DNA of 62,300 nucleotides, the filler included, from Fonticula-like sp. SCN 57-25 (Eukaryota): the NCBI GenBank assembly GCA_001724245.1. It is 10 parts of 10 records of this genome, joined end to end, with 100 filler letters (N's around TTAATTAATTAA, not from the genome) between each part and the next. Parts side by side here need not be neighbours in the genome. Positions count along the whole stretch, not along the records: positions 1 to 7,831 come from MEDX01000491.1; 9 more parts are not named here. One strand, 5' to 3'. Positions 1-58,257 of this stretch are shown here, in pieces. Position 1 is the stretch's first letter; every line of letters begins with the position of its first letter. The position numbers and the translations under genes are program-made. The notes below the pieces were generated by a model. It made no database searches, was not told the DNA's origin, and saw only the letters and a list, made by a program, of their open reading frames with translations.

Positions 1-267
1 TTTATTTGACGGAAGTTTGACAAAGTTGTATGGCTATTTCAAACTGCCCCTTCCAGGCGCGTTTTTGCGTTTTTCATAAACCTCTACATCAGGGGTACAT
101 AAATTTCATTGTCTGTGGAAGATTAAGTAAGAACGCACGCTGCATAATCTCCGTACCAGCAATGGGCCTAGTGTAATTAAATTTAGTCGTATGCATAGTC
201 ATGGGTTCGATTCTCGTAGACAACAATATTTTCTGTACCTAAAAAAGGAACAAAGTTCCTAAAAAAA

Positions 268-397
268 GAACTGTGACGGCGGGCCCACCAAAGGACCACT
301 AAAAGAGCCCAAGGGCCACAAACAATAAGTTCCACCCACCAAAGGACCACTAAAAGAGCCCAAGGGCCACAAACAATAAGTTCCACCGTCACAGTTC
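268..397. repeat. Two tandem 51-bp repeats (284-385) enclosed by a perfect 12-bp inverted repeat
   Basis: cccaccaaaggaccact...aagttcca starts at 284 and 335. gaactgtgacgg (268-279) pairs with ccgtcacagttc (386-397). Confidence 0.9.
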
Positions 398-431
398 GAT
401 ACCCTTTTTGCAATTTTTTTTGCTGCCCCAA

Positions 432-1514
432 TTAAGCTTTCATTAAATCAGAAGGAGAGACCCTCTTACGTACCAGTTCGCCGTCAGGATCACGAAGTAT
501 ATATGTCTATTTTTTGTTTCCCTAGAGCCTATTCATTCGGGCAATTGTGAAGACATCATAAGTCCAATTTTGTGATATAGACTTCTTAAGTTGTCCAGTT
601 AACATTTTTTTCCTATACTCAGCGTCAAATATCTTATTAGCTACGCGTACTCGATCACCAATCTGGAACTCAGGAGGATCAAACTCAACTTCTCGAACTC
701 GATTGTCGTTCTGGGCATCGGACTAGTTAGGAGTCATTCGAATAGCATCATGATACGTATCGTTGTAGCTTTCAATAAAATTAGCTAGATCTTCTTCTGT
801 GAACTCTCGATCTTCGACCTGATCGAGCCAGTGTTGTACTGATACCTTAAACGTCTTATTTAGTCGCTCAACACGACCCTGGGTTTGTGGCGTATATGTT
901 GCTGAATTAAAAACCTTTGTATTTTCCCGGCGAAGTCGGGCGCGCAGCGAGTTAAACTAATTGCCATTATCACTCTGTAGGCCACGAATACGTCCCATCA
1001 GGGGCTGGAGGTCTCGGACCGCGTTATTTACTGTCTGTTGTGTCTTATTACGAAGTAACTTACCATATAACTTCCTAGTGAATACATCGATCAGAAATAC
1101 AACATACCGGAACCCTCCTCGCCGGCCTGCTGGCTGCTTCCAATCTGGTGGAATATAAGTAAGATCTATTTGAAACATACCTTTTCCATGTGCTCGTACT
1201 TCATTTGTACTTCTCCGGTGCCTAGTAGGACGCCTTGCCTGATAGTGATCATCTTCGCGGTATATCGTGCGTACTCGATCTAGACTAATGTTTCCAATGC
1301 CGAGGCTCCGGATATGGTCGAAGACTCCTCGCTGACTTAATGGTCTCTACCGGCGAAGCCGGTTAACTAGTTCATCTATCTGATCCGTCGGCCACACGCG
1401 AAGGCCGTTCCTTCTGATATGTATGTTGCCATTGTGAATGACATAGGCCCGATCTAGATGCCGCGGAAGCCCATGTCGAAGATAGTGTTGAATATGGTTC
1501 TCATCGAAGTTCAT
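432..1514 (-). CDS. Retroviral-like (rve, DDE) integrase of Polinton/PLV type, 360 aa if 5 in-frame TAG codons are read as sense
   Basis: Manual translation gives FQIDL..FRYVVFLIDVFTRK..LQSDNGN*F..TYTPQTQGRVERLNKTFK..YNDTYHDAIRMTPN*..PEFQIGDRVRV..KKSISQNWTYDVFTI..TYILRDPDGE. TAG codons at 1347-1349, 957-959, 723-725, 522-524 and 507-509. ATG at 1514, TAA at 432-434. Confidence 0.9.
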
Positions 1515-1616
1515 TGTTATTTTGTCACCGTCTCTGTACGATCTATGTATATATAACCAGGAAATATATTTCCCCCGATTTAATTTATCTTTATACTTTA
1601 ATATAGCCAGGAAAGT

Positions 1617-4600
1617 ATGTCAGCATTTCACAGCATACTACTTAAGGACTTCCCTTACCGCTTTAAGTTCTACCTTGGTCAACTAAATTTGTCTTAGCTG
1701 GCACCTGAGACGGCGCAGCCGGTGAATAATATACTTGAACTAGATACGAACGGTGACGTAATTAAAAAGATGCCAATATTCGATATCAATAACTTTAAGC
1801 TAACTGATGAGACCGGAACTATAACCTTTAATAAGAAGCCCGGCGACATCAATATTACATTGGATCCGTACTACAATACGACGTATATTGACGAGATAAT
1901 CGAGGAGATCAACAACAGCATCATCAGCCTAATAGACAATATCAACATCAACTACTACACTATACCACAGATCGACGCTCAAAGGATCTGGCGTCATGCT
2001 ATTGTTTCAGGACGTAATATGTTCAACGTTGACAATCTATACGAACTGAAAAATCCTTCCGAAATTGCGAGCGGCAAACGAAAGTCTGCACGAGTTCTAC
2101 ACATTACTGAGGATGGGATAGTATTTACTAAGAACCAAGTTGACGTACCAGGTGATGGAGAAAACATTGCGATTCCTCTCTTAACAACACTCGCGGGAGG
2201 CGCTGCAGGTGCTCTTGGAGGGCTCTTTGCTAGGAAAGGTGGTGTTGGTGGTTCAGTTCCCGATCCATCACTTGGCGGACCTGATTTACCTGAGATTCGG
2301 CTCTCAGATTAGGAGGGTGTTACGAATGTTCCTTGGGAAGGCCGTTAGCATTTCTTTGATGAAGAGGATATTAATGATCTCGTTGATTACCGTGAGGTTC
2401 GCATTCCAGATGATTATGACGCCATTGATCTTGGACGTGGAGCTAGTCGAGGCCCCAGTTTTATGTCTTCTTAGAATTGGTCGGCGAGTATACCATTAAT
2501 GCGTGGAAATGTAAGTGCTGGACTCTATCAACCGAGCGCTGTATCAACATTTAATGCCCCAACTACGAGTCATTTTGTAGCTCATTAGAATGGAAAACTA
2601 GTTTCTCTTGATGCTAAATCCACTGCGTAGCATCTTAGTCACGCACTTAGTCTTGATCAGGATTCGATGGCTCATATGCTTTATACCGCGGGCCTTAAAA
2701 TCTCGAATAATGACCCCAATGATGCACGGTTTGGGCGAGTAATCCTAACAACGACAGCGGCGCCGAGTACACCTGCAGTTTTAGATCTATCCGGTAATGT
2801 TCTGGTCCCGCAAGTTCCTCAAGTTCCTGCTTAGCTGTTAATGCCTGCTGGTCAAAGTCAAGCATATAGTACTGCTTAGCTAGCTCCCTCGGCACTCCTC
2901 AATAGTCGCATCCCAATATTAACTGCAGGTCTAACTGGAACTGTTGACTACAGTGCTATTACCCAAGATATTCTGGGCTCTATTCCCGAGTTGGTGTCCG
3001 TTCCAATTGCTAAACTCGACTACACTGTTTCCGGGGCTAGTGGTATCATCGGTGACTTCTCCACAGGTGTCCGTCTTCCTGCGAACGCTGGTCTAAATAA
3101 TACTGGAAATCTGACTACGATTATCGGTCACTAGAGTGGGCGTCTCGCCGAAGTAATACCAGGTCCTGATGGCAAGACTGACCCGAGTGATGAAGCATCT
3201 CAGCCAGTTTATGGAAGTAATACTATCATTGGAGCTCAGTCCGGGCAGCGGCTATCAACAAGGTCTTACAACAATATTATTGTTGGAAACCGTAACATCT
3301 ATGCATGGCGACCAGTTCGACGTTTAAATAATTCAGTTATTATTGGTAACTCCATCGATCATGACTCCAACGGCAGTGCAGCAGTGGCCTACCCAATTTA
3401 TATCGGATCCAATGACTATCTGTAGAGTTATACAATCCGAATTGGTCGTACAAGTCACACTAAATGCTATCTGGGTGGTATCGGCGCTACACTTACTACT
3501 CCTTCTGGGATACTCGTTCGTGACGTAAATAATCAAATTGGAACCTTAACGTATGCGAACTCTCCTTTCCCACTCAAGACTGATATCACTACACTCTCGG
3601 GATCTATTGCTGCTACTTATACTTCTCTTGCTACATACAATGCCTACGTAAATTCTAATAATTATGCTCTCGCTGTAACAAACTCCAACGTGGATCTAAT
3701 TAATAATAAACTTTCAAGTTAGTACATAATGAGGGCTGAGGCAGGAGCAACGTTTGCTTACAAGGATAGTACTTACACAATAACTGCTTGTGACTTCTTC
3801 TTTGCAACAAAGGCTGACACTTACACTAAAACTGAGTCTGATAATCGTTATATGCTTGCTGGAGTCGGCGGCTATACGAAAGCTGAAGCTGACTCTCTTT
3901 TTCCTCTTAAGACGGTGACATATACCAAATCTGAAGTCAATGATATCATCGAGAACCTGGCTCCTGGTGGAACGATTACAGTTGATGCTTATACCAAGAC
4001 GCAGTCAGATAGTAGGTATTATCAGAAAGGAATTCAAGACAGCATTCCATACAATATGATTAGTGCTGATCACTCAAATGGTGTATTATTCAGTAACACT
4101 CTCCGTTTTCCTCGGAGTGCTGGCATTAATCTTGTGCGAACTGGTAACAGTAACGACGGTATTCAAAATACAATTCTTGGTGTCAACTGTGGTACGGCTC
4201 TTACAACTGGTTACTCAAACGTATTCGTCGGTCGCCAGGCGGGAGTTGACTGTACAGCGGGCTTTCAAAACGTGATCATTGGTCGCAATGCGGGAGGAAA
4301 TAACTTCTTAAATTATAACATCGCAATCGGGGCTGGTACAAGTCTTACAACTGGAGCTAGCTATCAGATCGTAATTGGATACTCTCAAGCTAGTATGGGC
4401 GCAGGAACCATTAAAATCGGAAGTTCAAATTATGCTAGTGGTACTTATATTTCGGGTATTCGTAATTACTCATCGTCCGACGATCTTATCGTAACAGTAT
4501 CTTCCGGAGACCGTCTAGGAGCCCGGAGCCTTACATCAGCAATCGGAGCGCTTGCATACACTAAGAGTTATATTGACGACATTTTCTACACTAAAGTCGG

Positions 4601-5846
4601 TGCGGCTACAGTATTCAGGTCAATTGCGGACTCCTATTCAAAGAGCGAGTGTGACACAAAGTACAGGACAATCGCGGCTTCTTACGCAAAAAGTGAGTGT
4701 GATACCTTGTTTAGGACCAAAGTGGATTCTTACTCTAAAACTGAAACAGATACTCTATTTTCCACTAAGTCTTAGACAACTTCTGCAATCGGTAGTCTAG
4801 AAACGTCAATCAATAACACACTCACGGGCTACTATACTAAAACTCAAACTGATATAATTGCGGCAGACTAGCGGAAGTGGGTCGCTCATAACATTGGACA
4901 GCGCGTTGTTCCACCATCGGATACAGAAGCGAACTACAATATGGTTCTTGGCGCGACTTATAACTTAGCTGGACTTACAGTTGTCTCTGGTAAACGTGCG
5001 TTGCTTCCAGTGGGAACTGGAGTTAATCGTCAGAACCTAATTGTTTCATGTGGAGATTGTCATTCATGGTCGGCGTCTACTTCAAACTCATTCGCTTACA
5101 ATACATCAGTTGGGCGTACAATCATGCCGAATCACTCGGGTGTAGGAACTAATAACGTCTGCATCGGGAGCTCAGTACTAGCAGCTATTACGACTGGATC
5201 AGTTACTAATAATGTCATTATAGGAAACGATGTACTAGCGAAGACTACAGTTGGAGCGACAGTAACTGATAACATCATCATTGGAAAGAGTATTGGTCCT
5301 ACAGCAAATTCAAGCAATTCACTCACTAACTGTATTATGATCGGCGCTTATAATAGTACTGGACTTGAATCGGCATCGCAAGCAAATAAAATCATGATTG
5401 GTAACAATGCTCATACAACGCTGCACATTCCCGCAGCAAAAAATACGAATATCTCAGGATCAGCTTCATGGCTATACATCAATACGACCACAGGACAAAT
5501 CGGCACTGTTTCATCTAGTTAGCGGTATAAAGAGAATATTGTTGAGATATCGGATGCTGATGTGGATGCCTTTGATTCATTGATTCCCAGTAAGTACAAC
5601 TACAAAGAGGACACGCAGAAAGAACTCTGCTATGGGTTTATCTCAGAGGATGCTGACGCGAAGATGCCGACTGTTTGCTTGTACAAGGAAAGCGGGAGTG
5701 GGAATGGGAGCTAGCAAAAGCTGGTCCCTGAGTCCGTGAAGTATCAGCACATGATCTCACTTTTAGCCGCTAGTAATAAGAAACTTCGTGGACGTGTATC
5801 GGACTTAGAGGCTCGCATGGCTCGACTTGAAGCTCTCTTGAATTAA
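1617..5846 (+). CDS. Tail-fibre/spike-like virion protein with YTKxE/Q repeats, NxxIG beta-helix-like repeats and a C-terminal Peptidase_S74-like intramolecular chaperone; 1409 aa with 15 in-frame TAG
   Basis: Track ORFs 1722, 3729 and 4941 share one frame and are separated only by TAG. The frame runs from ATG 1617 to TAA 5844-5846. The C-terminus reads SS*RYKENI..PSKYNYK..YGFISED..VKYQHMISLL..LEARMARLEALLN. Confidence 0.85.
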
Positions 5847-5913
5847 GTCCACTATTATTTATTTTATTTTAAACATTCTTTTTTACATACATATAACACC
5901 ACTTTGAAAATGG

Positions 5914-6102
5914 CTGTAACCGGTCATTTTCGTTCATATTACGCAAAACCAACACTATGAACGAACCGACGCCCAATGGAAAACCCCATGCATTTGATGC
6001 AATAAAATTTAAACATGCCCCCGTCTATGGGAATTTGATGGGATTTGACTGATGTCCCGGTGTGTTGCTCAACCAAATATGAATGAAAATGACCGGTTTC
6101 AG
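5914..6102. mobile_element. MITE-like element with 27-bp terminal inverted repeats; a second, partial copy lies at 7733-7831
   Basis: ctgtaaccggtcattttcgttcatatt (5914-5940) matches the reverse complement of 6076-6102 with 2 mismatches. 5915-6013 is identical to 7733-7831. Confidence 0.6.
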
Positions 6103-6152
6103 ATATAGCGTTTTCCCTGTTATGGCGTTTCGTTTGTTCTTGGTTGCGAACA

Positions 6153-6248
6153 GGACCGGAAAAAGAAAATGCTTTTTTGACAAAACTGGACCGGAAAAAG
6201 AAAATGCTTTTTTGACAAAACTGGACCGGAAAAAGAAAATGCTTTTTT
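6153..6248. repeat. 35-bp tandem repeat, about 2.7 copies
   Basis: ggaccggaaaaagaaaatgcttttttgacaaaact starts at 6153, 6188 and 6223. Confidence 0.95.
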
Positions 6249-6600
6249 TGTTTGGCGGACTGGCGATTGAACCTTCGAAAGTATCAAGGCGTTGACACGT
6301 TCACCCTTACATGTGTTTGGAATTACATTTCAAGAATTTGCAATTTCGACGTTCATTTTACATGCTTATATTTGTGGAATTCTTGTTGACGGATTTGGGA
6401 GAGGTGATTTCTGACTTTCCTTTTTGGGCGGATGACGAAACCGCATAACGACATTACCGACATTTATTTGAACGTCTAACTCATTCCCGTTTCGTTTGTT
6501 TGACATGTAATTACAAATTACAATGTAATCCATTGAATGTGTACGCTAAATGCCTCTTTTTATACGTGTTTTTTTTGGTATGCACATAGACTTACCTCAT

Positions 6601-6846
6601 ATGAGTGACGACAAGATCGAGCGCATGAGCAACTTCCAAGTTGGCCAGGCAGCGGCGCTTCGTTTCGACAACGACATGGACAGGTCTGATCGTCAGATCC
6701 TCAACAAAATGATCCACTCTGCTGACGAAACTACTCAGAACGAGAGGAGTAACCCGTACTACGACACGTCTCGGTCGTATAACGCTGAAGCGCAAGTAGA
6801 GCTTGATCGCATCGCTGCCTCGACCCAGCCTAAGCCTAAGCATTAA
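6601..6846 (+). CDS. Small hypothetical protein (81 aa)
   Basis: MSDDKIERMSNF...QPKPKH has protein-like composition and ends in TAA like the other contig-1 genes. No recognisable motif. Confidence 0.4.
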   Translation: MSDDKIERMSNFQVGQAAALRFDNDMDRSDRQILNKMIHSADETTQNERSNPYYDTSRSYNAEAQVELDRIAASTQPKPKH

Positions 6847-7831
6847 GCTTACCAGTGTTGAGGCCCTCCAGGACAGGTGGTCCCACGGTCGGCCAACGGC
6901 TAGTTAGGCCGCCGTGCGTCTGTGGCGGGACGGGTCAGGAGCGCAGACGCAGCAGGGTTTCCTCTGCTGCTTTGCTGACTCCGTGGCTGCGATTCCTTGA
7001 GGGGCTGAGCCCCCTCTTTGCCCCGAAACGGCCTGGGGACGGTTCCGAAAAAAGATTCCGACCCCTGTTTTTGTGCCAAATTTTGGCAAGGGCCCATGCC
7101 GAAATTTGGCACAGGAACGGGGTCGGTACCGATTTGTGCCTTCCCTTCGTTAAGATACAAAAACGCTATATAAGCAATTCTCATTATGTGATATGTAAAT
7201 TGTGCGCGTTCTAATTTATATATATACATTTATATACTTGTAATACCACTTGTACACACCTGAGAGATGATGCGCTTTTGAGCTTGGGAGGCCCGGCTCC
7301 GGCAGCGAGACTGTCTCATTCGCCCTCACTCATTACCATGTACACACATCATATTGAGCTTTAACAATGTCCGATTCCTTAATTTGGAGAGCGCAATTAA
7401 TTGAGACTAATGGCTATTTTTCTTGGTAGTGTGTTTTGGTAAGTGGGCAACCTTGTCAAAATGGCCACGCCTTCCACGGCTCCCACATGCTCTGGAGAAG
7501 GCATGTTCTGGCAACACATGCTCCACCATGGGCTTTTCATCGAAATTAAATGTCCGATATCAATTTACCACAAGGTTTTCACGCAGATTTTAATGCTTAA
7601 TACACTTTTCAATGAGATGTTACGACTCTCTAACGCTAAACGATCTGGGCGAGAGCAGTCTGCCAGTCCTTGGGCTGACTTCTGACGCTGCGATGTGGAA
7701 TATGAAGTATACACAGCACAAATCTTAACCAGTGTAACCGGTCATTTTCGTTCATATTACGCAAAACCAACACTATGAACGAACCGACGCCCAATGGAAA
7801 ACCCCATGCATTTGATGCAATAAAATTTAAA

Positions 7832-19604: not shown

Positions 19605-20305
19605 AGTAGCATTGTGTAATAAACCGTTTGCTATGTATTCAACCATGTCATTTGCGGGATTGGGCTGGAAGGGGTTGGCTAACTGGGAGCATTTGGCGAG
19701 GCGCACATGTGGAGCCGCTAGCACAGTAAAGTTGTCCACTGCAGTTTTATCTCCAAGTATGCGCACATGTTGGCCATTACTGGGATATTTACATGCTGCT
19801 ATATCCACATCACTGCCCATTTCGAGGAAAAAGGAGTAAACTATATCAAGAATTGAAGGCGTCTGTGGAGTAGCAGTTTATATATAGGTACGAATAGTAT
19901 TACAGTGTGGATTTGGTATGCTACTCGGTGCAGTATGACAATGTCTGCAGGCTTCACTCACGCCTGAACGGATATATACGCTATTGCTAGATCCCTTTTN
20001 NNNNNNNNNNNNNNNNNNNNNNNNNNNNNNNNNNNNNNNNNNNTTAATTAATTAANNNNNNNNNNNNNNNNNNNNNNNNNNNNNNNNNNNNNNNNNNNNG
20101 AGCCAGTTTACTGTTACCCTCGTCAGTTGGCTTGACGCTGGTCCTTTTCTCTTTGAGAACTTTAATGCTCATTCCGTAATTTTACTTTACCAAACAACGT
20201 GAAATAGTTGTTTATGCAGCAAAATAACAAGAAACAGAAGAAAAAGGTCGGAGTTGACTGCCCTTATTGTGGTCTAATTTTTTCTGCACTTCCGCACCAT
20301 TTAGC

Positions 20306-22254
20306 ATGTCATTTGACATTCCACAAATTCGAGCAAATTCAGACTCCTGGGGTCCAACAAACGCTTCCATCCCCCACCGTTTTGCGTACCTTGCGCACAC
20401 CCCGTTCACCTCCCCCCCATCCTCTTCAACCTTCCAGGTTCAGCAGCAGCAACAACAACAGCAACAGCAGCAGCAGCAAGCAAAGCATGATTTTCGATTG
20501 GGCAAAACGTTTGACTTTGTGTTCAATTCTTCGCAAACGCAGCAGCAGCAACATGCCACAAGAGTGCAACGCAAGAAGGACGAGGAGCAGACGGTGAGCG
20601 ACGACGAGGAGGAATTCAGCGTGGTGACCTCCAAGAAGGGCGGTGCTCGCGGTGGCCGCCAATGGTCGCAATCTGCACGTGGAGGACAGCGCCAGATGAG
20701 GGGCGGTTTCAAGAGGGGCCGCGGCCAGTACTACAGACGAACCCAAGGGCGCTACAATGCGCTCTCAAAGCCAAGCATAGAAGTGAGGCCATCCTGGGAG
20801 CTGATGCAAACTTTTACCTTCCCAGAACTCGGTAAAGTGTCTGTGGATGTAGTGCCCGCTGCAACTGACCTGTAAGTAGTTATAGTTTTGTTAGCTGAAT
20901 ATTAACGAAATCTGTCCAATGTCCTATTACCAATTAACAAATTGTCCAAAAATTGCCCAACCAACAAACTGTTCTCTTTCTGAACAACCAACAAACTGTC
21001 CAATATCTGAACAACCAACAAATTGTCCTGTCAACTTACTAATTAACAAAAAAAAAACCTATATTATCAACAAACTACCCCCCTTCTACCAATTGTTACA
21101 CAGTGAAACTGCTGGTTTTGTGGAATGGTTTGATGAAAAATACAACCAGAGCACCGTGAAGAAACCATTGCCAATTCTCAAACCATCTCGTTTGGTGTTC
21201 AGCACAACCACCTCTGATGATCCCATCATTGCAGAATTAGCAGAGAAAATCAATGCTGAGGAACAAGGACCTGTTACTACTGTGTATGCAACTGATTTCC
21301 TGTTGGCTGTGTTGATGAGTGCCCCACGTTCAGTGTACTCCTGGGATTTGGTTCTCACCAAGAAGGGCAATACGATCACAATTGATAAGAGAGAGTCCAG
21401 TGATTTGGATCTCCTGACAGTCGATGAGACCTCAAAGGATCCACCCTTGTTCTCAGACAGCAAGAATAGCAACACGAACTATGCTCAACAGTTGCATCAA
21501 GAAGCAACAAGGCTAAATATGGCATTCCAAGAGCAAGTTCTCAAAAAGGTATTCTAGGACTTGTTGATGTTTTCCATGGTTACTCACAACTATTGCTTTT
21601 TAAACTGTTTAGGCGGAAGAGCGCGAATATTTTGCCAGAGAGAACCCATTCCAAGATGAGTACAAGGATGACCAGATTGCAGCCATTGGCTACAAATATC
21701 GCCAATGGAAACTGGGCAAATATTTGAATGTAGTGGCTCGTTGCCAAGTCGATGGTATTGACAAGACGGGAGCCAAGGATCAATTCCTCACTATTCGTTG
21801 TATTAACGAATACGAGGCAAAGGAGATTGGTGATTGGAAGAGCAAACTTGAAACCCAACGAGGTGCTATTTTCATGAATGAGTTGAGGAACAATATTAAC
21901 AAATTTACTCGCTGGACAGTACAAGCCCTGTTGGGTGGATCTAATCAACTGAAACTTGGCTACGTATCACGCTCTAATCTCGCATCTGGCGCGGGACATT
22001 CTATTCTCAGTATTGACAGTTACTTACCGCTGGACTTTGCCAAGCAAATTGAAATGAACATCAGGAATATTTGGGGTATTGTCAAAACAGTTGCGGATCA
22101 AGTGAACAAGTACGATGATGGCAAATACGTATTGCTCAAGGAACCAAACAAGAATCTCTTGCAATTGTACTCTATTCCTAACGGCGAGACAGTTGAGGGA
22201 GAGGTTGAGGATGCTGATGTCAGCGATTCAGAGGAACAAAATTACAGGGAATAA
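20306..22254 (+). CDS. EIF3D: Translation initiation factor 3 subunit D, spliced
   Basis: NSDSWGP, TTTSDDPII, APRSVYSWD, LDLLTVDETS, ELRNN..KFTRWTVQALLGGS..KLGYVSR, GKYVLLKEPNK. Confidence 0.95.
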
Positions 22255-56563: not shown

Positions 56564-56595
56564 GGGGGCCTGCGAGGCCCCCTTACAAGTTTTTT
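56564..56595 (-). promoter_or_regulatory. -1 programmed ribosomal frameshift signal (gag-pol)
   Basis: A_AAA_AAC slippery heptamer (56595-56589), 6-nt spacer, and an 8-bp stem gggggcct-cgc-aggccccc. Confidence 0.85.
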
Positions 56596-57680
56596 GGGCG
56601 GCCCGAGACAGAGTCCTTGTCGGCGGGGCCGCTGTTGTCCTTGTCGCTCGTCGGAGCATATCCACCGTGACGTCCATGACCTGGCGGGCGTTGGTAGGGG
56701 TGCGAGCTTGAGCGACCTTGGAAGGTGGCGAGGTCGCGGATGCGCGTGCGGCAGTCGACCGCGTAGTGGCGTGGCTTGCCGCAGTAGGCGCACTGCACCG
56801 CAGAGTTCGACGCCGGATCACGATCACTGGCACTATCAGCATCTCGACGATCTTGGCGAGGCCGGTCATGGTGGCGCGGGTTGCCGGTAGGTCCTTGAGA
56901 ACGCGGCGGCGCCGATGCCACATGCAGCGCGACCACGTCGCTCAGACGCCGAACCTCCTCCTCGATGCGCTTGATGGCGGCACCGTGACGATCTTGCTCA
57001 AAAGCTGCGGCTGGGTCGAGCGTCGGCGCCATGGCGGCCAGGATGGGCGCGGCGGTGATGCGCGGCACGGCGGGGGTAACTTGACCGCCGTGACCTTGGC
57101 CTTGCATCTCGCCGATCTTGCAGGCTCGAGACACGATGTCGTCAAAGGTGAGAGGCTTGTCCGAGGACGTCTCGAGCACTGCGAGCAGCGTACGCCACTC
57201 GTGCGGAAGTCCAGCGAGGAAGGCCGCCACCTTCTCGCCGTCCTCCATCGATGAGTTGATGCGGCCGCACAGAACTTGAATGGCGCGCGCGTAAGCACGG
57301 ACGGACTCGCCGGCCTGCAGGCGGCGCTGCGCCAGCTGCTGGCGCAACCAAATCGTGTCGGTCGATCCGGCAAAAGCGTTAATCAGCTTGTCCTTGACAG
57401 TGGCAAAGGTGGCCTGGTCGCCGGGAGCCAGCTGATGGAAGATGTTGGCGGCCTCGCCTGCAAGGAAAAGCGGCAAAACTTGCAGGCGATGCTCCGGCGA
57501 CCATCTGACGACATCGGCCGCTCGCTCAAAGTTAGCAAACCAGCGACGGATGTCGTGGACCTGCTCATCGGACAGCTTGCCGACGAGTGACGCGATGGCC
57601 GTCGGGTTGGCAGTCGCCGCAGCGGTGGCTGCCGCAACGGCGGCGTCGATGTTGCCAGCAGTACGGGCGTTGGTGCTCAT
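56583..57680 (-). CDS. gag: Ty3/Gypsy Gag
   Basis: LQAGESVRAY..KVAAFLAGL and the zinc knuckle CAYCGKPRHYAVDC. Confidence 0.92.
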   Translation of the reverse strand: MSTNARTAGNIDAAVAAATAAATANPTAIASLVGKLSDEQVHDIRRWFANFERAADVVRWSPEHRLQVLPLFLAGEAANIFHQLAPGDQATFATVKDKLINAFAGSTDTIWLRQQLAQRRLQAGESVRAYARAIQVLCGRINSSMEDGEKVAAFLAGLPHEWRTLLAVLETSSDKPLTFDDIVSRACKIGEMQGQGHGGQVTPAVPRITAAPILAAMAPTLDPAAAFEQDRHGAAIKRIEEEVRRLSDVVALHVASAPPRSQGPTGNPRHHDRPRQDRRDADSASDRDPASNSAVQCAYCGKPRHYAVDCRTRIRDLATFQGRSSSHPYQRPPGHGRHGGYAPTSDKDNSGPADKDSVSGRPKNL

Positions 57681-57741
57681 TGTCGCTGAACAAACTTGGT
57701 CGAGAACAAAAAGAACTCGAAAAAGCTGTCGATGTCGCCAA

Positions 57742-58163
57742 TGTGATGCGGGAGGGAAAACGGTTAGGGTCACTGGAGTGAAAGGGCGCAGCGATGGCAG
57801 CGGAATGCGCTGTCGGGATGCGCCACAGCTCTCAGAGAGAAGCAGTGGGGGAAAGCAAGTTTATTGCTGCTGAGAGAAAAGAGGAAAGAGAAAGAGCCTG
57901 TACACATGGCAGGAAAGGGAAAAGAGCTCAGCGAAGAACTTGAAACGGATATTGGGCCATGATCTTGGCTGGAAGGTTGTTCTGTTGGGAGAGACGAAAG
58001 TTGTGTGTGAGTGTACGTTGATTGGTTGGAAACGAAAGGGTCTGCTCGAAAAGGAAACGAGAGACAAAGAGGAGGGAGGAACAACTGCATGAGAGGAGAG
58101 GGAGCGCGCGCCGAGGGGCGGCGCAGGCTGTCCAATGTCATGGATGGATGGTGATTCACCACA
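57742..58163 (-). mobile_element. Single LTR (~422 bp), preceded by a polypurine tract (~58167-58178) and followed by a primer-binding site (TGGCGAC.., ~57726-57740)
   Basis: TGTGGTG...CATCACA termini, AAAGGGGGGGG upstream, and TGG one base downstream. Confidence 0.8.
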
Positions 58164-58257
58164 TCACCCCCCCCTTTCGAAAAGACGCGAAGCGTCCCTC
58201 GACATCGATTCAAAAGGGCACTGTCAACCAACACTCAAGGCGTCCCCTGAGGCAGGC

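Follow-up and report, generated by a model that had tools for sequence, protein, structure and literature searches.

In-frame TAG read as sense, probably as glutamate, in two genes of a candidate virus-like mobile element

Introduction

In the genetic code of peritrich ciliates, which are abundant in activated sludge, UAA and UAG both specify glutamate (Glu) and UGA is the stop codon. In Blastocrithidia both UAR codons are read as Glu and UGA as tryptophan (Trp), UAA acting as a stop as well (PMC12153298), and in Oligohymenophorea sp. PL0344 UAA encodes lysine (Lys), UAG encodes Glu and UGA terminates translation (PMC10553269; PMC11687900). Codes in which UAG alone is reassigned and UAA remains the stop were compiled by McGowan et al. 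(2024; PMC11687900): UAG is leucine (Leu) in a rhizarian and in TARA phyllopharyngean genomes, glutamine (Gln) in Iotanema (I. spirale), Hartmannula sinica, Trochilia petrani and Protocruzia tuzeti, and serine (Ser) in Scotinosphaera. In the extract of that article used here UAG = Glu is listed only alongside UAA = Lys, in PL0344. Here we describe contig 1 (positions 1-7831; MEDX01000491.1) of a 62.3 kb stretch of DNA, the window, which comes from assembly GCA_001724245.1 of Fonticula-like sp. SCN 57-25 and consists of ten contigs with runs of N between them. The contig carries a divergent pair of genes, for an integrase and for a very long fibre-like protein, in which TAG is read as sense and TAA as stop.

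Maverick/Polinton-like elements of Streblomastix strix follow the code of their host, in which TAA and TAG are Gln (Bellas et al., 2023; PMC10120064). In a catalogue of giant viruses, gene calls are sometimes better when a single stop is reassigned (PMC13524828), and a code with UAG = Glu and UAA as stop is not established in the extract of that catalogue. A full-text literature search, the scope of which excluded supplements and subscription journals, found no article that combines UAG = Glu with a UAA stop.

Two genes in which TAG is read as sense

With TAG translated as sense, contig 1 holds only two open reading frames (ORFs) of at least 150 residues. The first, on the minus strand at 432-1514, encodes a DDE integrase of the rve family with 360 residues and has TAG at codons 56, 186, 264, 331 and 336. 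The second, on the plus strand at 1617-5846, encodes a fibre-like protein of 1409 residues and has 15 in-frame TAG codons, with first bases at 1695, 2310, 2346, 2472, 2586, 2628, 2832, 2877, 3132, 3423, 3720, 4773, 4869, 5520 and 5712. Both ORFs end in TAA, and neither contains an internal TAA or TGA or a frameshift. A preliminary description of this DNA had given these counts and coordinates, which are exact, and the motifs that it quoted as running intact through TAG (SDNGN#F, MTPN#, SS#RYKENI and IIGH#SG, where # is TAG) are all present in the translations.

In the fibre gene the coding frame has TAA, TAG and TGA 1, 15 and 0 times, against 30, 16 and 13 times in one of the other frames and 63, 19 and 60 times in the other. 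The corresponding counts for the integrase gene are 1, 5 and 0 in the coding frame, and 5, 7 and 6 and 16, 5 and 18 in the others. TAG is about as frequent in the coding frame as in the two remaining frames, and it is TAA and TGA that are excluded. Over both genes TAG makes up 20 of 1771 codons, compared with 28 for GAG, 27 for GAA and 25 each for CAG and CAA. All 11 Trp codons are TGG, and the 1769 sense codons include no TAA and no TGA.

TAA is the true terminator, as had been proposed. Homologues stop at most two residues from the contig 1 TAA, and read-through of TAA overshoots their C-termini by about 38 codons in the fibre and by about 131 in the integrase, the latter across a tandem repeat of 51 nucleotides (nt).

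A metagenome scan returned two loci. One of these (L002), on an independent metagenome contig, is 100% identical to window positions 1181-3028 over 1848 nt and keeps the TAGs at 1349, 1695, 2310, 2346, 2472, 2586, 2628, 2832 and 2877. The other (L001) has a divergent fibre and integrase pair arranged as on contig 1, with 70% identity at the fibre N-terminus and about 55% in the integrase; full-length relatives of the integrase in general are 54-56% identical. The L001 integrase has eight in-frame TAGs, one at a TAG site of the window and seven elsewhere, and is free of TAA and TGA until its terminal TAT TAG TAA TGA. We also mapped contigs of four public runs (X1-X4, from four studies) onto contig 1. 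An X4 contig, from a different study, has a single mismatch in the 1453 nt that span the integrase. Among the 40 variant places listed of 627, none is at a TAG codon, and third codon positions account for 26 of the 40 that are listed for the fibre.

Between the window and L001 the proportions of synonymous (pS) and nonsynonymous (pN) differences are 0.80 and 0.30 for the integrase and 0.70 and 0.18 for the fibre N-terminus, so that synonymous sites are saturated and replacement sites are not. This pattern indicates that both genes are under purifying selection and that their TAG codons turn over like ordinary codons. Public databases hold traces of the same usage. The protein P0005 is the L001 integrase with TAG translated as Gln, and a 'Q' in such records may therefore be TAG. 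A third lineage, the P0013 cluster, is represented only by pieces of 136 residues with identical ends in nine of ten members, the pattern expected if in-frame stops split the gene under the standard code. TAG is read as sense in both genes, and the proposal that TAG alone is reassigned is borne out by the frame counts, the turnover in L001, the selection on both genes and the identical copy.

Identity of the residue encoded by TAG

A HMMER search gave 3906 integrase homologues at E <= 0.001. Our alignment of 150 rows comprises the query, two close relatives and the best 147 hits other than a fragment of the window's own protein, and column counts were taken over 146 distant homologues. The most informative site is codon 186 (959-961, minus strand), in the motif SDNGx(E)F. 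Here 145 of the 146 homologues have Glu, one has Ser and none has Gln, a degree of conservation similar to that of the catalytic residues. The same position is GAG in L001, and is Glu in the database protein P0004 and in all ten members of the P0013 cluster. Column 264 holds Glu in 51 homologues, Asp in 27 and Gln in 18, and column 56 holds Asp in 64, Asn in 27 and Glu in 10; columns 331 and 336 are variable. Neither Leu nor Ser matches any informative column. The total profile log-likelihood, across the informative columns of the window and of L001 together, is -23.3 for Glu, -27.5 for Asp, -29.5 for Asn and -34.7 for Gln, which places Gln seventh.

Codon pairings with L001 point in the same direction. 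The five integrase TAGs of the window face GAG, GAG, GAA, GAT and TAG, and of the window's 18 genuine Gln codons 11 pair with Gln codons. In the fibre, TAG 603 occupies the Glu position of the motif ESNTIRIG, which is Glu in eight of ten homologue instances, TAG 1053 falls where the protein's own repeats mostly have Asp, and TAG 1302, in the S74 motif, aligns with Arg, Arg, Arg and Ile and is uninformative. Translating TAG as Glu gives the integrase 5.8% Glu and 5.0% Gln, close to the family means of 6.05% and 4.69%; translating it as Gln gives 4.4% Glu and 6.4% Gln, farther from those means. Of their 361 residues, P0004 and P0162 share 360, and at the remaining one Glu stands against 'Q'. If this 'Q' is TAG, the two would differ by a TAG/GAG polymorphism that is synonymous when TAG is Glu.

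The alternative that survives best is that the element is as we describe it and TAG is Gln, as the preliminary description had suggested. We regard this as unlikely, though less so than any of the other alternatives considered below. The two genes share with table 15 (UAG = Gln, UAA and UGA as stops) a sense UAG and a terminating UAA, and a code with UAG = Gln in which UAA is the favoured stop is already on record (PMC11687900). Several observations count in its favour and against Glu. The repeat IIGH#SG, from which Gln had been deduced, does point that way, since the position of TAG 506, that of Gln in the repeat consensus GxQAG, is Gln in 10 of 63 homologue instances and Glu in one, and is Gln, Gln and Asn in the fibre's own paralogous repeats. 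The L001 integrase TAGs face CAA, AAT, CGG, CGG, GCT and GAC in the window, the two CGG codons being two transitions away by way of CAG, and the L001 fibre TAG pairs with an Ile codon. Scored with BLOSUM62, the L001 TAG sites alone slightly favour Gln or Arg over Glu, with Gln 1.5 nats above Glu. Over all 12 pairings Glu leads Gln by only 2 nats (-29.9 against -31.9). The call of Glu depends mainly on the single strongly conserved column 186, and other rve subfamilies, for example IS3, have Gln at the Glu position of DNGxEF.

The evidence against Gln comes from the integrase family, though from few sites. Gln is absent from column 186 (0 of 146) and is a minority at column 264 (18 of 146), and its profile log-likelihood is far below that of Glu. 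Four window TAGs face L001 codons other than TAG; three of these are Glu codons and none is a Gln codon. The columns in which Gln is conserved (Q92, Q115 and Q180) carry no TAG in either the window or L001. On the profile likelihood and the codon pairings we favour Glu, as probable and not proven; Gln takes a much smaller share of our confidence, and the other residues divide what is left. The full combination of UAG as Glu with UAA as terminator is put forward tentatively, at somewhat less than an even chance.

Nature and distribution of the element

Retranslation followed by a Pfam search, as the preliminary description had advised, identified both proteins above the family cut-offs. The integrase matches rve (PF00665) over residues 112-209 with 37.0 bits against a gathering score of 32.6. 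Its catalytic triad of D117, D182 and E216 is intact, is encoded entirely by ordinary codons, and lies in columns that are invariant or at least 90% conserved among the 150 aligned homologues. The NCBIfam model for IS481 (NF033577) gives 81.6 bits, under its cut-off of 224, and the integrase is related to IS481 and outside that family. A tblastn scan of Genome Taxonomy Database (GTDB) genomes found only ten loci, at no more than 32% identity and mostly in Saccharibacteria. The best match in prokaryote genomes (L003) is on a 2936-nt contig of a metagenome-assembled genome labelled Chloroherpeton, and is 30% identical over residues 64-342 of the window integrase; the contig is very short, so that it may be a piece of eukaryotic or viral DNA placed in the wrong bin. 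An Atlas cluster look-up was made with a homologue, P0015, in place of the window integrase. The nearest clusters with taxon labels are assigned to Eukaryota (one of them partly with a chromodomain) or to Viruses, each with few member records, and for the top-ranked cluster no taxa are recorded.

The fibre consists of a conserved N-terminal domain (residues 1-142), a variable linker, repeats of the types NxxxGxxAG and YTKxExD, a C-terminal S74 chaperone domain and a final helix. The N-terminal domain has L001 as its only known relative, and relatives' contigs omit 257-685 nt within 1991-2811, in the linker. The Peptidase_S74 or intramolecular chaperone auto-cleaving (ICA) domain (PF13884; 27.9 bits against a cut-off of 22) spans residues 1300-1352, at 5514-5672 on the plus strand. 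It has Ser1300 and Lys1305 in the arrangement S-x4-K, which we take to be the spacing of the S74 Ser/Lys dyad, with the TAG of codon 1302 between them. The structural model of this part has predicted local distance difference test (pLDDT) values of 60-87 over its last 100 residues, and in a Foldseek search of the PDB the ten best matches are all ICA or intramolecular-chaperone domains (including MyRF, 7dc3; 3gud; 3gw6; and the T5 fibre, 4uw8), the best being a weak match with an E value of 0.018 and a template-modelling (TM) score for the target of 0.56. The model of the N-terminal domain, with a pLDDT of 34.3, is too low in confidence for use. No named family was found for the fibre beyond the S74 domain. 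A word-indexed protein search with residues 1270-1409 gave no match, and a PDB sequence search with the C-terminus gave nothing relevant. In two runs the distal half of the fibre is covered about ten times as deeply as the integrase and draws many related contigs, which is what an exchangeable module for host recognition would be expected to show. The anatomy is that of a viral receptor-binding protein, and the function in a virion fibre would follow from it.

Our view, held with moderate confidence, is that contig 1 represents part of an integrating virus-like mobile element, with the code, the residue and the mechanism that we propose. The integrase would insert the element into chromosomal DNA. 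The divergent gene would yield a very long trimeric fibre with an N-terminal anchor and variable distal repeats, and the S74 chaperone would cleave itself following trimerization. In translation UAG would be an ordinary sense codon, UAA would terminate and UGA would be unused as sense. Glu would be delivered by a CUA-anticodon tRNA that arose from tRNA-Glu(CUC) through a single change in the anticodon, and the release factor would disregard UAG. The source would be an uncultured member of wastewater and bioreactor communities, most likely a microbial eukaryote or a virus that infects one. This view is drawn from the lack of any integrase match by tblastn in 50,697 phage records, the few and distant GTDB loci, the score for IS481 below its cut-off, the Atlas labels and a non-coding flank of about 2.4 kb on contig 1 that is rich in repeats.

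Several results weigh against this reading. The 7.8 kb of contig 1 carry no capsid gene or other viral hallmark. No terminal inverted repeats were found, there is no inverted repeat with one arm on each side of the gene pair, and the left end is undefined. No tRNA gene was found in the window at default settings, relaxed ARAGORN calls are low-scoring and none has the anticodon CTA; a search for a tRNA with anticodon CUA had been suggested, and within the window, to which it was confined, none was found. Among the contigs of the window there is no host contig with in-frame TAG. A search with the whole fibre returned only five S74-bearing proteins, similar in the repeats or the C-terminus, so that the sole relatives of the fibre would be S74 repeat proteins of unrecorded origin, and S74-capped repeat fibres are common and typical in phages. 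Of the preliminary description as a Polinton-like or other virus-like element, the integrating and virus-like parts stand. The fragment has no double jelly-roll capsid, penton, packaging ATPase, protease or polymerase gene, and 'Polinton-like' is for that reason a reasonable guess and not a result.

The last point on fibres leads to the second alternative, a TAG-recoded phage or prophage. Contig 1 would then be a piece of a transposable, Mu-like phage with its tail fibre, the suppressor tRNA would lie elsewhere, and the code would be that of the virus and not of its host. Among phages, recoding of TAG is widespread (bioRxiv 10.1101/2021.08.26.457843). The integrase has matches to PHROG transposase families (best E value 1.1e-12), the fibre has one marginal match among phage records, to a Synechococcus phage collagen-like protein, and its ATG has AGGA 4 nt upstream. 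On the other side, the integrase lacks any counterpart in the phage records and misses the IS481 cut-off, and IMG/VR scans with the integrase, the fibre, alignments of the integrase and of the fibre N-terminus, and a degenerate DNA motif returned no relative. No Shine-Dalgarno-like motif precedes the integrase or the L001 fibre, non-coding repeats make up 32% of the contig, unlike the gene density of phages, and the integrase is recoded as well as the fibre. We judge a phage origin to be improbable, more so than Gln at TAG.

Runs with the element are labelled as bioreactor and wastewater metagenomes. Ten are listed, from five studies and mostly with small shares, and none of these listed runs is an RNA run; X4 is labelled as complementary DNA (cDNA) and was judged probably to be DNA. 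The element recurs across several wastewater and bioreactor studies, and existing data could therefore pin down its host and code.

Other codes and sequence decay

A further alternative is a host that uses one of the known codes with UAG = Glu, namely that of peritrichs, Blastocrithidia or PL0344. Glu is read at UAG in all three (for Blastocrithidia and PL0344 see PMC12153298 and PMC11687900), and the L001 integrase terminates in TAT TAG TAA TGA. In the two genes UAA is the stop, which excludes the peritrich code (table 30) and that of PL0344, where UAA is sense and UGA the sole stop; TAA as sense would carry both proteins far beyond the ends of their homologues. The lack of any in-frame TAA or TGA, with Trp encoded by TGG 11 times and by TGA never, excludes a code of the Blastocrithidia type (table 31). 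In-frame frequencies reported for Blastocrithidia (UAA 2.06-2.28%, UGA 0.72-0.85%; PMC12153298) would predict about 38 UAA and about 14 UGA codons among the 1769 here. For the two genes of contig 1 the known codes with UAG = Glu are already contradicted, and we give them very little weight.

Least probable of all is that the genes are dead and their TAGs nonsense mutations, from deamination or decay resembling repeat-induced point mutation (RIP), or assembly errors. Bellas et al. (2023; PMC10120064) warn that assembly is frequently to blame for stops seen in endogenous viral elements. Here only one type of stop interrupts the frames, with 20 cases among 1769 codons, C-to-T changes should also have produced TAA from CAA and TGA from CGA and neither is in frame, pN/pS against L001 is far under 1 with L001 TAGs at sites of their own, and both an identical independent contig and a copy from another study differing at one of 1453 nt are known. 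This explanation, which in its deamination form the preliminary description had named among the results that could overturn it, is effectively refuted.

Flanking sequence and neighbouring contigs

The divergent intergenic region (1515-1616) is A+T-rich and 102 nt long. The motif CCAGGAAA occurs at 1557 and 1607, its sole two copies in contig 1 and both intergenic, and AATATAGC (1600-1607) lies about 10-18 nt upstream of the fibre ATG. L001 has AATATAGC, in its region 427-467, at a nearly equal distance from its fibre start, although synonymous divergence is saturated. These motifs may act as a promoter or initiator; a scan for promoters and terminators found no excess over shuffled sequences.

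Just beyond the integrase stop, two exact copies of a 51-nt unit follow each other in tandem (284-385), flanked by the arms of a 15-nt inverted repeat (268-282 and 383-397). The structure at 268-397 may be a terminal or a terminator structure. In X1 and X3 the summed contig depth of the bin at 1-262 is about 100-fold higher than that of the remainder, which implies that this end is high-copy or widely shared. Relaxed ARAGORN, and no other setting, detected a tRNA-like remnant at 109-224; its 7-bp acceptor stem is perfect and a T arm is present, its D and anticodon arms are poor, and its 'intron' measures 43 nt. With default settings contig 1 has no tRNA, and it has no Rfam match at standard thresholds.

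The unit shared with X4 breaks off on the right at 5914/5915. The X4 sequence diverges after 5914, and X4 has the element and nothing on 6027-7831. In X1 and X3 the depth of the flank at 6014-7831 equals that of the integrase. The 99-nt segment 5915-6013 has an exact second copy, 1818 nt further on, at the contig end (7733-7831), and an X1 contig connects 7831 back to 6013. By this join and the exact repeat the right flank resembles a tandem unit of 1818 nt or a circle. An inverted repeat pair at 5914-5940 and 6076-6102 (also at 7733-7758), with arms of 26-27 nt that are 93% complementary and 135 nt enclosed, has its left arm beginning exactly at the divergence point. From its sequence the unit looks like a miniature transposon, and the breakpoint at 5914 may mark where another mobile sequence inserted and not where the element ends. 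The stretch 5915-7831 has no ORF that matches a Pfam family, and none of five flank ORFs matches one.

Two further features lie in the right flank. At 6149-6253 a 35-nt unit (AACnGGACCGGAAAAAGAAAATGCTTTTTTGACAA) is present three times in tandem, each copy with a promoter-like match of the form TTGACA-17-GAAAAT. In a G+C-rich part, a hairpin at 7057-7127 has perfect-looking 30-nt arms with no loop spacer, and gives sub-threshold Rfam matches to microRNA precursors (29.6 bits against a gathering score of 86).

The other nine contigs of the window are eukaryotic DNA with the standard code. Their G+C content is 0.45-0.61, compared with 0.44 for contig 1. A contig with 61% G+C carries a seemingly intact Ty3/gypsy gag-pol (56583-62298), with a gag of 396 residues and a pol of 1346 residues that has protease, reverse transcriptase, RNase H and integrase domains and an SH3-like C-terminus. 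Another, with 45% G+C, carries the gene for eIF3 subunit D (eIF3d; 20267-22254) in at least three ORFs; these are in differing frames, which indicates introns. The same contig has a WD40 ORF of 633 residues terminated by TAA. Other genes on the neighbours encode a patatin-like lipase and a copper monooxygenase-like protein.

In six of the nine the longest standard-code ORF terminates at TAG, as had been stated for the neighbouring genes. Reading through TAG lengthens these ORFs by only 2-15 codons, for example from 574 to 576 residues for the patatin-like lipase, from 612 to 627 for the copper monooxygenase-like protein and from 525 to 532 for a third ORF. The low-GC neighbours were considered as DNA of a host that reads TAG, and were rejected, the Pfam-matched part of an eIF3d exon and the 633-residue WD40 ORF being free of TAG. 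Contig 1 is the sole piece with in-frame TAG, and the window is thus a mixture of DNA sources. The earlier suggestion that contig 1 is misbinned or uses another code agrees with this, in that its code differs from that of its standard-code eukaryotic neighbours.

Comparison with known systems

Codes that decouple UAG from UAA are rare, and each provides a test of ideas on how codes change, by tRNA capture or by change in the release factor. If our reading is correct, the element marks an uncultured wastewater protist lineage with a new variant of the nuclear code, or a eukaryotic virus with its own decoding. UAG = Glu with UAA as stop would then be a further independent route, intermediate-like between the standard code and those of peritrichs and Blastocrithidia. 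Standard gene calls miss the family or fragment it, as in the 136-residue pieces, and other records have been translated with TAG as Gln. A recoded receptor-binding fibre would also offer a handle on the pairing of viruses and hosts among activated-sludge protists.

The combination of UAG = Glu and a UAA stop differs from the UAG-only codes listed in the extract of PMC11687900 and from the peritrich, Blastocrithidia and PL0344 codes. Like the UAG-only nuclear codes (PMC11687900), contig 1 has UAG decoupled from UAA, UAA as stop, rare UGA and TAG at the frequency of a sense codon; in those codes the residue is Leu, Gln or Ser, whereas here it is probably Glu. The code of PL0344 resembles that of contig 1 in that UAG is Glu independently of UAA, and differs in that the UAA of contig 1 terminates and is not Lys.

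The S. strix elements are likewise integrating and virus-like, with an rve-type integrase and reassigned stops, features that imply a long tie to a host with that code (Bellas et al., 2023; PMC10120064). Contig 1 departs from them in reassigning TAG only, probably to Glu, in terminating with TAA and in having no hallmark genes. The TAG-recoded phages (code 15; bioRxiv 10.1101/2021.08.26.457843) are also viral or mobile, with in-frame TAG in the fibre and TAA stops; their predicted residue is Gln, and for contig 1 no suppressor tRNA was found, and one marginal match is its only phage relative. Finally, the fibre has the Pfam S74 domain, the S-x4-K arrangement and, going by weak structural matches, probably the fold family of S74-capped proteins such as endosialidase (3gw6), the L-shaped fibre of T5 (4uw8) and the MyRF ICA domain (7dc3), and differs from them in that the remainder of its 1409 residues falls in no named family.

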